Shown here: positions 5,182 to 37,637 of the stretch, piece after piece
How the letters are laid out: each line of letters starts with the position of its first letter
Numbering within the stretch: the stretch's first letter is position 1
Source of the DNA: a virus
UHGV virus genome: UHGV-0368255
DNA: 38,207 bases
Direction: 5' to 3' (one strand)
Position numbers and translations under genes: made by a program
Notes under the pieces: generated by a model
Seen by the model: the letters and a program-made list of their open reading frames with translations, nothing else
What the model was told of the DNA's origin: nothing
The model's database searches: none

Positions 5182-5700
5182 ATGAACAAACATGAAATAC
5201 AAGCATTTGAACATGCAGTTTTTACTTTCAATAGACTCGCTAAACGAGCAAACGAAGACTTTATTCCGTTTGAAATTATTTGGGATACAAGATTTGGCCC
5301 CGCAACAGCTACTAACGTTCTATACAAGACCAGCTCTAATCCAATTATAAATGAATATTTCTTCCACAATGAGTATTTCCATGATGAAGAATCAAATAAA
5401 GCTGCATATATAGATGAGTTATATGCATATGTAGATCATGCTGTATCTCAATACTTCAGCGACCTAGTTAGCGGTGGCTATTCACCTAAATTGAATATGG
5501 CAGAACGCCCACACGTTCTAATGGATAAGTTACTGGAACTATCTAAATTTGATGAAGCAATTAGTTTAAGAATGCCTAATTACTTAACCACTTGGGATTT
5601 TAAAACCTTAGACGAATCTATTAAATTGCCTTTCATTAATGATGAAACCCTGATATTACGTCCTCTATGTTTAATTAAAGAACAGACAACAACTTCATAA
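5182..5700 (+). CDS. hypothetical protein, lone plus-strand gene between ArpU and the late operon
   Basis: 172 aa. AGGAG RBS 9 nt upstream. Own promoter TTGTGA-16-TATAAT (5101..5128). Own terminator follows. Confidence 0.6.
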   Translation: MNKHEIQAFEHAVFTFNRLAKRANEDFIPFEIIWDTRFGPATATNVLYKTSSNPIINEYFFHNEYFHDEESNKAAYIDELYAYVDHAVSQYFSDLVSGGYSPKLNMAERPHVLMDKLLELSKFDEAISLRMPNYLTTWDFKTLDESIKLPFINDETLILRPLCLIKEQTTTS

Positions 5701-5846
5701 GAAGAAATGAACTATTTTTGATTTGGTTTATTTGTAGCTGTTGCCTGTTTATTAACAATTTTAAAATAAACAGCGATCGTATAGAGAAAAAATATGTGAG
5801 TAGTTTTTCCGATTGCTCTCTATTCAAAGAAGAAGTTAGCAACGAT

Positions 5847-5878
5847 AAGGGAGGTTTCCTCCCTTACATTTTATTTTG
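5847..5878 (+). terminator. intrinsic terminator for the 5182..5700 gene
   Basis: AAGGGAGG-ttt-CCTCCCTT hairpin followed by acATTTTATTTT. Confidence 0.6.
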
Positions 5879-5968
5879 TCTCAGACCTATCACTAATCTT
5901 TCGACACTACCATAATATCACTGGTAAATAGCTAAAAACCGCCATCATTCCGCCAAAAAACCGCCAAA

Positions 5969-33806: not shown

Positions 33807-34205
33807 TTATTTATTTGCTTTTTTAATCAGATTGACCAGTTCGCTGTCTATTACCTCTTTTACTCCGATAATTTCTTGCTCTTTTTGTTTATAATCAAAG
33901 AAAGATTTGAAGGTTTGATAAATCGGAACTTGTTTTTTACCTTTTTTCTCTTGTGCTTGAACTTCGTAATTTTTCCAAGCGGCAAGATGAATCAAATATT
34001 CTTTGTCTAACATTTTTAACTGATGAGCTTTTTGTCTTAGTCTGTATTCGCTTATTGTTAAGCGATCCATTTGATTAAAATCATTTATTCCCAAATAACG
34101 TAGACAATTCAATTGAAACTCTTCATAAATTTCATCAAAATCTATCTTTTTTGTAATTCTTCTAGAAGTTGGTTTGTCTTCAATTTTGTAAATTCCGACT
34201 TTTTT
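33807..34205 (-). CDS. tail assembly chaperone GT-type frameshift extension (-1 frame relative to 34142..34486)
   Basis: Frame open from 34220 to 33807 with no ATG start (the track begins at a TTG). It is entered from the upstream ORF at the A_AAA_AAG heptamer (34199..34205). Confidence 0.6.
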   Translation of the reverse strand, partial: KKVGIYKIEDKPTSRRITKKIDFDEIYEEFQLNCLRYLGINDFNQMDRLTISEYRLRQKAHQLKMLDKEYLIHLAAWKNYEVQAQEKKGKKQVPIYQTFKSFFDYKQKEQEIIGVKEVIDSELVNLIKKANK

Positions 34206-34486
34206 AACTCTTCTAAAACATCATCAAACAACTGCTCGCTACCATTTTCTTCAATGTAATCTGCAATTGCGATCTCACTTACTTTCGGTGTTTCTGTTGA
34301 ATTAGCAACTTTCAACATCTCTACAAGAGTTTCTACATCTTTATTAAGAAAATTTGATAATATTGTTTCCATTCCCATTTTCATCGTTAACCCTTGTTCA
34401 GTCACAGAATATCGACGATTCATCTCTTTAATGAATCCATAACCAAAAATAAAATCATATTCTTTTTCCTTTATAACTAGCCTCAT
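34142..34486 (-). CDS. tail assembly chaperone (G-like)
   Basis: 114 aa acidic protein between the major tail and tape measure genes. Contains the slippery site near its 3' end. Confidence 0.65.
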   Translation of the reverse strand: MRLVIKEKEYDFIFGYGFIKEMNRRYSVTEQGLTMKMGMETILSNFLNKDVETLVEMLKVANSTETPKVSEIAIADYIEENGSEQLFDDVLEELKKSEFTKLKTNQLLEELQKR

Positions 34487-36095: not shown

Positions 36096-36421
36096 ATAAA
36101 TTTAAACCTCCCTCGATTTGGCTTGTACAACTCTTCCTGATCTTTACGCTTAAATTCGTCAATCTCATTTTGATACTCTGAAAAATCCGAATCAGGAAAA
36201 GCCATAGATAAACCTTCTTGAGAATATGACTGCATACCTTCTTGACCAATTCTATTGAATCTTTTCAACGATACTTCATATACAACTGTTTCAAATTCTT
36301 TAGGAACTTCTTGCGTATTTAACAAGGTTTTCATACGCTCATTCGTTCTTCGCTCAATAACTTCAAGCTTTTCATCTAGTGTTCCTTTAAGAAGTTTTTT
36401 AATATCCTCTGCAATCGTCAT
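36092..36421 (-). CDS. gp6-like head-tail connector protein
   Basis: 109 aa. First gene after the capsid gene. Confidence 0.5.
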   Translation of the reverse strand: MTIAEDIKKLLKGTLDEKLEVIERRTNERMKTLLNTQEVPKEFETVVYEVSLKRFNRIGQEGMQSYSQEGLSMAFPDSDFSEYQNEIDEFKRKDQEELYKPNRGRFKFI

Positions 36422-36432
36422 ATTTTTACTTC

Positions 36433-36726
36433 CTAACTAGCAGGTTGACCTGTCACATTGATTGAAGTAGTGAATTCTCCAGAAGTAAATGTGAATGTTG
36501 CTGATCCTTCTGCTGCAATCGTTCCATCAAAACCACCATTTTCATTTTTGGTCACTGTTGCGATAGCTCCATCACTTGAAGTTGCTGTAGTAGCTGCAAC
36601 AACAGTAGCTGCATCGCTAGCATCTGCAGGCATAGCTGAAATAGTAAATGTTTTAGTATCGCCTACTTTACCGGTCCATGTCTTTTGATTTGGCACAATA
36701 CCGGTAGCAGGCGTTACGCTTTTGGG
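36433..36726 (-). CDS. Ig-like (Big_2-type) domain appended to the major capsid protein by a -1 programmed frameshift
   Basis: The frame is open from 36744. There is no RBS, and the only in-frame start is a GTG. The slippery heptamer C_CCA_AAA (36720..36726) lies in the last codons of the capsid gene. The extension is T/S/A-rich and beta-rich, as in Ig-like decoration domains. Confidence 0.55.
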   Translation of the reverse strand, partial: PKSVTPATGIVPNQKTWTGKVGDTKTFTISAMPADASDAATVVAATTATSSDGAIATVTKNENGGFDGTIAAEGSATFTFTSGEFTTSINVTGQPAS

Positions 36727-37637
36727 GAAATCTTCCCAAATGCTTCATCTTTTACAATCATAAATCCAACATCCATTGTTGCACGCAAAGCAATCAGTTC
36801 TTGCTCAAACAAGTTAACTGGGGTTCCATCTTCATTAGTTAAAGTAGACAATTGGGCTTCTTCAGAAATCTTAAATGAAATATTATATGGGATTCCATAA
36901 AACATGTAATTAAAGTCTCCAGCGTAAAGAGTTCCTTTATCTAAAGACTTAAGGTCTACTACTGGTAATCCGTCAATTGTATTAGCAGAGCGATCATAAA
37001 TAAACTCAACATTTGACCCGACTGTTTGAGCTGCAGAACGTAATTCTGTACGATTTTTTCGGTTTGAAATAAACGCATTAGGTTCAAATTCATTTTCTGC
37101 TAATTTGTCTTCTAAGGCTAGGATATTATCATAAGTCAATCCGCCTTCAACCACATTCCCCGCACTAATAACTGATCCGTCTAGTGACTGAGGAAATGGG
37201 TTTTCTTTATTTAATAAGGCAGCTGCATCAAATTTTTTATAGAAAGCTTCAGCAATTTTTGGCTGCATCTCCTCAAAGAAATCTGATAATTTATAATTTA
37301 AATATTCACGAGAAACCGGAAGAATGACACCGAGTTTTTTTGCAGTCATCGTAGCTTGCATCCATTTAGGTTTAGACGTTTTAATTTTTTCACCTTCACC
37401 CACCCAGTATGCGCCTGGTCCTTCAGCAAAGTATTCAAATTTCTTTTCTTTGTCAGTCATTTCTTCGTATTTTGCTAACTGCATGATCTTAGAGTTTTCC
37501 ATAACTTCACTCAAAATGAGCGTATTATATTTATCAGGAATTTTTCCCTCTTTCGTTTCATATACCATAACATTATCTGGATCCCATGTTTGAGCAAACA
37601 TTTGCAAGTTCATAGGTAAAAGTTGTTTCTTTTTCAT
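36714..37637 (-). CDS. major capsid protein
   Basis: 307 aa. Follows the scaffold gene. N-terminal MKKKQLLPMNLQMFA pro-sequence. Confidence 0.8.
   Translation of the reverse strand: MKKKQLLPMNLQMFAQTWDPDNVMVYETKEGKIPDKYNTLILSEVMENSKIMQLAKYEEMTDKEKKFEYFAEGPGAYWVGEGEKIKTSKPKWMQATMTAKKLGVILPVSREYLNYKLSDFFEEMQPKIAEAFYKKFDAAALLNKENPFPQSLDGSVISAGNVVEGGLTYDNILALEDKLAENEFEPNAFISNRKNRTELRSAAQTVGSNVEFIYDRSANTIDGLPVVDLKSLDKGTLYAGDFNYMFYGIPYNISFKISEEAQLSTLTNEDGTPVNLFEQELIALRATMDVGFMIVKDEAFGKISPKA

Follow-up and report, generated by a model that had tools for sequence, protein, structure and literature searches.

The 38,207-nt virus genome UHGV-0368255 (the whole of this stretch is referred to below as the window) belongs to a phage that very probably joins an immunoglobulin (Ig)-like domain to its major capsid protein by programmed –1 ribosomal frameshifting at a C_CCA_AAA heptamer close to the capsid stop codon. 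A preliminary description of this DNA had proposed such a frameshift, and the proposal is supported by a heptamer that is the sole one in the overlap of the two frames and is conserved in relatives, by the lack of a conserved independent start for the –1 open reading frame (ORF), by selection acting in the –1 frame, by a stable hairpin downstream, by the Ig-like fold modelled for the extension and by the identity of the cassette with that of phage A2. The locus is a genuine case, not annotated so far, of the A2-type –1 frameshift by which a capsid acquires an Ig-like domain; the mechanism is known, and as the cassette is the same as in the published A2 case, the novelty of the locus is lower. 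The elements of the locus are as follows.

37637..36714, minus strand: major capsid protein gene, zero frame; 307 aa, 34.8 kDa, HK97-fold family
36747..36745, minus strand: TGA closing the –1 frame on its upstream side; the –1 frame is open from 36744
36726..36720, minus strand: slippery heptamer C_CCA_AAA (X_XXY_YYZ), read in the capsid frame, 9 nt 5′ of the capsid stop
36719..36714, minus strand: 6-nt spacer GCG TAA, holding the zero-frame stop at 36716..36714
36717..36656, minus strand: predicted stimulatory stem-loop; main stem 36713..36700 CGCCUGCUACCGGU with 36675..36660 ACCGGUAAAGUAGGCG, 2-nt bulge
36720..36433, minus strand: –1 extension with a predicted Ig-like domain, 95 codons (SVTPATGIVPNQK...GQPAS) and the stop at 36435..36433; proposed to be fused to the capsid C-terminus
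36696..36694, minus strand: GTG given as the start of a separate 87-aa coding sequence (CDS) in GenBank relatives (ORF 36696..36433); no Shine-Dalgarno (SD) sequence, not conserved

The capsid gene and its frame overlap

The zero-frame product matches the Pfam family Phage_capsid (PF05065, E = 5.8e-35, 121.5 bits against a curated cutoff of 24.2) and PHROG 10, major head protein (E = 3e-58), and the nearest solved structure is the capsid of Staphylococcus phage 80alpha (6b0x, E = 3e-101 over residues 2–305). A profile match above the cutoff together with homology to a solved capsid thus places it in the HK97-fold family. The ATG of the gene is preceded by a strong AGGAGG, and the order of genes on the minus strand (DUF4355 scaffold, capsid, 87-codon ORF, gp6-like head-tail connector) is that of a typical siphovirus head module.

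The capsid gene ends GGG AAG ATT TCC CCA AAA GCG TAA, with CCCAAAA standing in the capsid frame exactly where the preliminary description had put it. The –1 frame is 103 codons long and, again as described before, is open for 16 codons 5′ of the GTG at 36696, up to the TGA at 36747..36745, and shares 28 nt (9 codons) with the capsid gene. Because of this TGA, any shift between the frames is confined to 36744..36717, and within the 28-nt overlap C_CCA_AAA is the only canonical heptamer. Translation through a –1 slip reproduces the predicted GKIS-P-K-S-V-T-P peptide: the product reads ...GKISPK-SVTPATGIVPNQK..., also given as ...GKISPK-SVTPATGIVPNQKTW..., and comes to 401 aa (44.0 kDa), and the peptide across its capsid/extension junction is AFGKISPKSVTPATGIVPNQKTWTGKVG. 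The residues SVTPATGIVPNQK are encoded 5′ of the GTG and are obtainable through recoding only. The heptanucleotide CCCAAAA occurs five more times in the window, in no case within a GCGTAR context, and the window holds no second cassette of this capsid/tail type.

The signal is conserved. Relatives that carry the window's cassette (class A) have capsids down to 78% identical, and the distance of 9 nt from heptamer to stop is the same throughout. The codon that precedes it varies (TCC, AGC, CGC) and always ends in C, so that X_XX of the heptamer is kept; GCGTAR is unchanged in every context that carries the cassette.

Absence of a conserved start and selection in the –1 frame

No SD-like motif was found 5′ of the GTG at 36696, while an SD core of 4 nt or more, AGGAGG in most cases, precedes 27 of the 35 long minus-strand ORFs, the capsid gene and the gene that follows the extension among them. 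Start codons were compared in 80 IMG/VR relatives whose capsids are 70–100% identical to that of the window. The GTG proved to be limited to the closest relatives, and L038, L052, L075 and L078 have GTT in its place. The first canonical start in L038, L052 and L078 comes 38 or 81 codons past the capsid stop (in L078 there is only a TTG, at +81), and L075 contains no ATG, GTG or TTG across the whole of its 99-codon –1 ORF. The GTG at 36696..36694 is probably an internal valine codon, and the marks of a free-standing head decoration gene, a conserved start of its own and a ribosome-binding site, were not found.

The preliminary description had credited the ORF with a GTG start, no SD sequence and no ATG; the GTG and the missing SD sequence are confirmed, whereas an internal ATG does exist. 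It lies at 36612..36610 (minus strand) and encodes the Met of ...ISAMPAD...; none of the relatives examined shares it, the codon there being GTG (Val) or some other. This ATG, which arises from a single substitution specific to the window and has no SD sequence nearby, probably does not matter.

The codons between the slip site and the GTG are kept as protein, SV[T/A]P[A/T]TGI, and substitutions 5′ of the GTG are distributed over –1-frame codon positions 1, 2 and 3 as 3, 0 and 5. The ratio of nonsynonymous to synonymous substitution rates (dN/dS) in the –1 frame is 0.10–0.29 against seven relatives, some of which carry the ORF behind unrelated capsids, and more than 50 independent contigs have it uninterrupted. 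Judged by these substitution patterns, the –1 ORF is under purifying selection.

A predicted hairpin downstream of the heptamer

Folding of the 80 nt 3′ of the heptamer yields a minimum free energy of –26.4 kcal/mol (z = –4.23), a stability reached by none of 200 dinucleotide shuffles. The main stem begins 6 nt past the heptamer (at nt 7, with outer pairs from nt 3) and spans 36713..36660; a stimulatory structure, which the preliminary description had recommended looking for, is thus predicted at canonical spacing. In an RNAalifold consensus of 13 class A variants the 14 consensus pairs are largely kept, the changes being mostly exchanges between G.U and A.U, with one compensatory pair.

Support for the stem comes from its being formed anew in non-homologous contexts rather than from covariation. 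In L106 and L092, each with unrelated downstream sequence, the CGCCU arm is paired again, in the former as GCCUCCAAC/GUUGGAGGC (z = –3.6) and in the latter as a CGCCUGA/UCAGGCG stem (z = –4.7); L170 also has a stem on the CGCCU arm (z = –3.4). Weaker downstream structures are found in phiFL4A (z = –1.9) and L136 (z = –1.4). The hairpin is a predicted structure that may stimulate the slip. An Rfam scan of 36300..37000 returned only a sub-threshold snoRNA match, which we attribute to chance.

The extension is modelled as an Ig-like beta-sandwich

Compared with protein profiles, the extension matches PHROG 215, ‘structural protein with Ig domain’ (E = 2e-15). A Pfam search returned no family at E ≤ 1, Big_2 (PF02368) included, and we therefore do not file the extension as a Pfam Big_2 member; a sequence search of the PDB with the extension gave only noise. 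An AlphaFold model based on 17 homologues (predicted local distance difference test score, pLDDT, 82.7; predicted template modelling score, pTM, 0.70) is nearly all beta. Foldseek matched this model at probability 1.00 and template modelling (TM) scores of 0.63–0.76 to 2l04, 7r3t (Big_2-CBM56), LigA (8gyr) and SbsC (4uid), and virion proteins of phage SU10 are also among the matches of probability 1.00. The TM scores to 2l04, the C-terminal Ig-like domain of lambda gpV, are 0.68/0.71; a match to the N4 capsid is weaker (E about 0.01). The extension is, according to this confident model, an Ig-like beta-sandwich of the Big_2 kind by fold, not by sequence. The term ‘Ig-like’ used in the preliminary description is accordingly upheld by PHROG 215 and the structure model and finds no backing in Pfam.

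Additions to the C-terminus of related capsids

In the capsid family of the window the C-terminus, right after MIVKDEAF.K, is a hotspot for added domains. Dozens of protein clusters, 63–73% identical, are in-frame fusions of the capsid to an SbsC-type beta-sandwich (PF18316) of 398–405 aa in total, and others, of 429–434 aa, carry another beta-rich domain of ~125 aa; examples are L079:85-1305 and L082:2489-3706 and proteins P0053, P0078, P0057 and P0069. The predicted 401-aa product matches these in-frame fusions in architecture and size, which lends the frameshift Rosetta-stone support.

Other relatives differ in what follows the capsid gene. In class B (L049, L037, L035 and ~30 others; e.g. 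L049:3391-3500) the capsids are 86–98% identical and a He_PIG Ig domain lies in the –1 frame. Its first canonical start comes ~40 codons in, and the overlap is devoid of X_XXY_YYZ heptamers. The shift in class B must take place inside CCG GCG GGG GAG TAA (or GTG GGG AAG TAA), where CCCC(G), 8 nt downstream, forms pairs with the G-run and leaves the stop codon in the loop, a layout unlike that of a classical –1 frameshift. Class C relatives have nothing added and no such ORF.

The cassette of the window, or a form of it with another heptamer, is also found with other capsids. L136/L186 (Lacticaseibacillus suibinensis) encode a capsid 57% identical to that of the window, ending ...SPKA* with an identical cassette; the –1 extension there is not an Ig domain but a 59-aa Gly/Ser linker with an HeH/SAP-like motif (a weak Pfam HeH match, below the cutoff). 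Phages of the Enterococcus faecalis phiFL4A type have a different capsid, which ends GTA AAA AAA GCG TAA CGCCTAC, with a canonical A_AAA_AAA at the same place, the spacer and stem arm of the window, and an Ig domain, 68% identical to that of the window, in the –1 frame.

Existing annotation of these regions varies. In phiFL4A (NC_013644, L173) gp40 is a 50-aa hypothetical protein that covers only the last 50 codons of the Ig domain region, and in phage AE4_2 the equivalent region is labelled ‘tail tube protein’. A tail-protein role, as that label implies, was rejected: the phiFL4A domain lies directly 3′ of the major head gene.

A recurring joint at the ends of unrelated head genes

We use ‘joint’ for the ~20 nt made up of the slippery heptamer, GCG, the stop codon and the CGCCU 5′ hairpin arm. 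The exact 18-mer CCCAAAAGCGTARCGCCT is present in 89 IMG/VR contigs. Species-representative genomes contain 27 matches to it, ~20 of which are chance occurrences in unrelated phyla, outside any relevant gene context; those with real gene context come from Enterococcus and Lacticaseibacillus only. At least seven head proteins, unrelated to one another in sequence, terminate with the 18-mer or with its A_AAA_AAA variant:

80alpha-like capsid (window type): CCCAAAA
A2-type capsid: CCCAAAA
Phage_capsid_4-type capsid (L115, L116, L146): CCCAAAA
two protease-capsid fusions (L092, L106): CCCAAAA
118-aa protein of unknown family (L122): CCCAAAA
phiFL4A-type capsid: A_AAA_AAA
147-aa Phage_scaffold protein, PF06810 (L170): CCCAAAA, at about 2199 of the reverse-complemented locus

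All CCCAAAA cases end ...PKA* and restart with SV(T/A)P. The L170 scaffold, which ends ...YIPKA* and is followed by a window-type Ig domain in the –1 frame, was unexpected, being a scaffolding-type protein. At least three unrelated types of extension lie behind the joint (Big_2-like Ig, SbsC-like beta-sandwich and HeH), and the 3′ hairpin arm is re-formed from differing coding sequence in each context. Identity between unrelated contexts is limited to an island of ~17–22 nt with unrelated DNA on either side.

On balance we favour the view that the joint is a portable, conserved recoding junction of Lactobacillales phages. Its recurrence would reflect either the exchange of modules by recombination at the joint or strong convergent selection for one optimal signal. 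A search of the accessible literature, which did not extend to Fraser 2006, García 2004 or Rodríguez 2005, gave no description of such a recurring joint.

Proposed mechanism and alternative explanations

We propose that a ribosome that has reached TCC CCA AAA would hold tRNA-Pro in the P site and tRNA-Lys in the A site while the stable hairpin 6 nt downstream resists unwinding. In some ribosomes both tRNAs would then move back by one base and re-pair with CCC AAA; these ribosomes would bypass the TAA and read 95 more codons. The 401-aa (44.0 kDa) and 307-aa (34.8 kDa) forms presumably co-assemble, so that a set fraction of the subunits would show the Ig-like domain on the exterior of the head. 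We infer that slipping occurs in this phage, at some efficiency, and that the long form is present in virions, where the domain may serve surface adhesion or stabilisation.

Several points weigh against this reading. In the AT-rich window, in-frame X_XXY_YYZ heptamers with Y = A or T occur at 0.0062 per codon, so that one is expected by chance with a probability of ~5% in a nine-codon overlap, and the heptamer by itself, in a single sequence, is weakly significant. The covariation in the hairpin is modest and comes from a homologous set in which coding also constrains the region; we claim no covariation proof. The downstream folds of A2 and L122 are no better than those of shuffled sequences, so that the hairpin contributes unequally from one context to another. 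For A2, we take C_CCA_AAA to be the slip site mapped by experiment on the strength of the A2 DNA, where no other canonical heptamer lies in the overlap. A literature search returned no paper on this phage or its near-identical relatives and no protein-level evidence for them. As the heptamer is weak when taken from one sequence, the case rests on the other evidence, and it is the comparative data that make the heptamer strong.

The extension could be a small gene in its own right, a free 8.7-kDa decoration protein started at the GTG at 36696, either directly and weakly or by termination-reinitiation 18 nt past the capsid stop. Such a CDS is given in both deposited records, the GTG is present in the window and its ~99% identical relatives, seven codons past the capsid stop, and so short a gap could in principle permit reinitiation. 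We nevertheless consider a separate gene improbable: the GTG has no SD sequence in a genome most of whose genes have a strong one, it is GTT in the four relatives named above, one of which (L075) is without any canonical start, and the seven codons 5′ of it are conserved as protein, varying mainly at third positions. Moreover, the homologous A2 extension is produced by frameshifting, and relatives carry such domains as in-frame fusions. Production of the same fusion by another route, through transcriptional slippage (the loss of one A in the A4 run) or through a slip of the P-site tRNA only, near the stop, would leave an end product that sequence analysis cannot tell apart. The seven A of the phiFL4A-type site are nearer to the lengths at which polymerases slip, and recoding in class B seems to do without a canonical heptamer. 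An A4 run, however, is well below the lengths known to support productive transcriptional slippage (reviewed in PMC5009743), and the window combines a perfect in-frame X_XXY_YYZ with a canonically spaced hairpin. The first C of the heptamer is kept despite amino-acid changes in the preceding codon; it matters for tandem slippage only, and its conservation would not be explained by transcriptional slippage. Such other routes are, in our estimate, very improbable.

It is hardly credible that the ORF is the unexpressed remnant of an Ig-like module brought in out of frame by recombination. Non-homologous recombination is believed to spread such modules, with chance deciding whether they end up in frame (PMC5009743), and some close capsid relatives, those of class C, lack such an ORF altogether. 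An unexpressed relic is hard to reconcile, however, with an ORF that is intact in more than 50 independent contigs at a dN/dS of 0.10–0.29, with the confident fold model or with the conservation of the slip signal and hairpin. A sequencing error that split a single gene was rejected as well, the same frame layout being present in more than 50 independent assemblies. Programmed –1 frameshifting within the capsid gene is the reading that we retain.

Annotation, implications and other observations

The extension is listed as a small hypothetical or truncated ORF in near-identical GenBank phages, in phiFL4A-type phages and in many prophages, whereas the true virion component is probably the 44-kDa capsid-Ig fusion. 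The preliminary description had called the site unannotated, which is true of both ~99% identical GenBank records, PQ283533 and PQ554527. An Ig-like domain carried on a phage head is a candidate adhesin for surfaces of carbohydrate or mucus, and the fusion may matter for how Enterococcus phages behave in the gut and for therapy or engineering, for which it would offer a natural sub-stoichiometric position for capsid display. One short joint found on unrelated head genes would amount to a compact, transferable –1 frameshift signal for Firmicutes, and the contexts in which it recurs would show how a 3′ hairpin arm is rebuilt from unlike coding sequence, a test supplied by nature.

The record PQ554527.1 is named ‘Acinetobacter phage D2SVT’ (L002; labelled as an A. 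baumannii phage). It is 98.9% identical over the query region, and its gene order is that of vB_ElaS_B1578. The host assignment seems mistaken, the result of contamination or mislabelling.

Elsewhere in the window, the tail assembly chaperone gene at 34486..34142 (minus strand) contains A_AAA_AAG at 34199..34205, in GAG TTA AAA AAG TCG, ~19 codons before the stop of G. The –1 frame is open from this heptamer into the downstream ORF, to about 33777 (...KKVGIYKIEDKPTS...), a classic G/GT arrangement. The GenBank relatives have two separate CDSs here, with a gap of ~80 nt and no slippage annotated.

Comparison with known systems

The closest known system is that of phage A2. Its capsid gene, ORF5, ends ACC CCA AAA GCG TAA CGCCTG, and 20 of 20 nt agree with the window junction CCCCAAAAGCGTAACGCCTG, the frame and the distance to the stop being shared as well. 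The heptamer of A2 lies 9 nt before the stop and is the sole canonical one in a 40-nt overlap, as it is the sole one in the overlap of the window. The –1 extension of A2 also starts SVTP; it has 87 aa against 95 in the window, and the two are 40% identical over 90 columns (BLASTP, E = 1e-17). The capsids to which they are attached, in contrast, have no BLASTP similarity (E > 1), and the flanking DNA is at chance identity. The A2 capsid is 400 aa long and, by its mat_peptide annotation, loses an N-terminal part on maturation, whereas the window encodes a capsid of 307 aa and a separate DUF4355 scaffold. The host genus is Lactobacillus (Lacticaseibacillus) for A2 and Enterococcus for the window, and the hairpin of the window is much stabler than the one predicted for A2.

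García, Rodríguez and Suárez (2004, J Bacteriol 186:1714) reportedly described the A2 major head proteins gp5A and gp5B, made via a –1 ribosomal frameshift; the title of their paper calls the long form essential. A second –1 frameshift of A2, in the major tail protein, was reportedly described by Rodríguez, García and Suárez (2005, J Bacteriol 187:8201). The A2 major tail gene ends GCC CCA AAA GCG TAG; here too the heptamer stands 9 nt ahead of the stop, and the –1 frame holds a Big_2-like extension of 81 codons. This site is followed by TCGGTG... and has no CGCCU arm; it belongs to a tail and not to a capsid gene, and the tail tube gene of the window has no such extension. That the capsid of A2 gains an Ig-like extension by a –1 frameshift is established by experiment (Atkins et al. 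2016, PMC5009743; also PMC7260188). In the A2 RefSeq entry (NC_004112, L083) the capsid extension, at 5581..5907, is unannotated and appears as a gap between ORF5 and ORF6.

Capsid recoding is known from other phages, namely T3 gene 10 (–1), Listeria phages A118/A500 (–1) and Listeria phage PSA (+1) (PMC5009743). In T3, A118/A500 and PSA one gene yields two capsid proteins with a common N-terminus, one of them with a C-terminal extension that arises from a frameshift at the 3′ end, as proposed here. Their slip sites and signals differ from those of the window; the shift of PSA is +1, and the T7 extension is not Ig-like. The 80alpha capsid, of which the window capsid is a homologue, has a solved chain of 324 aa and no Ig-like extension, and we know of no frameshift in its gene.

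Fraser et al. (2006, J Mol Biol 359:496) are said to have described in-frame Ig-like C-terminal domains on phage structural proteins, such as lambda gpV. The window extension resembles that of gpV in its fold class and in its C-terminal position on a major structural protein. An in-frame fusion of the gpV type places the domain on every subunit, whereas in the frameshift proposed for the window only the frameshifted fraction of the capsid subunits would carry it.

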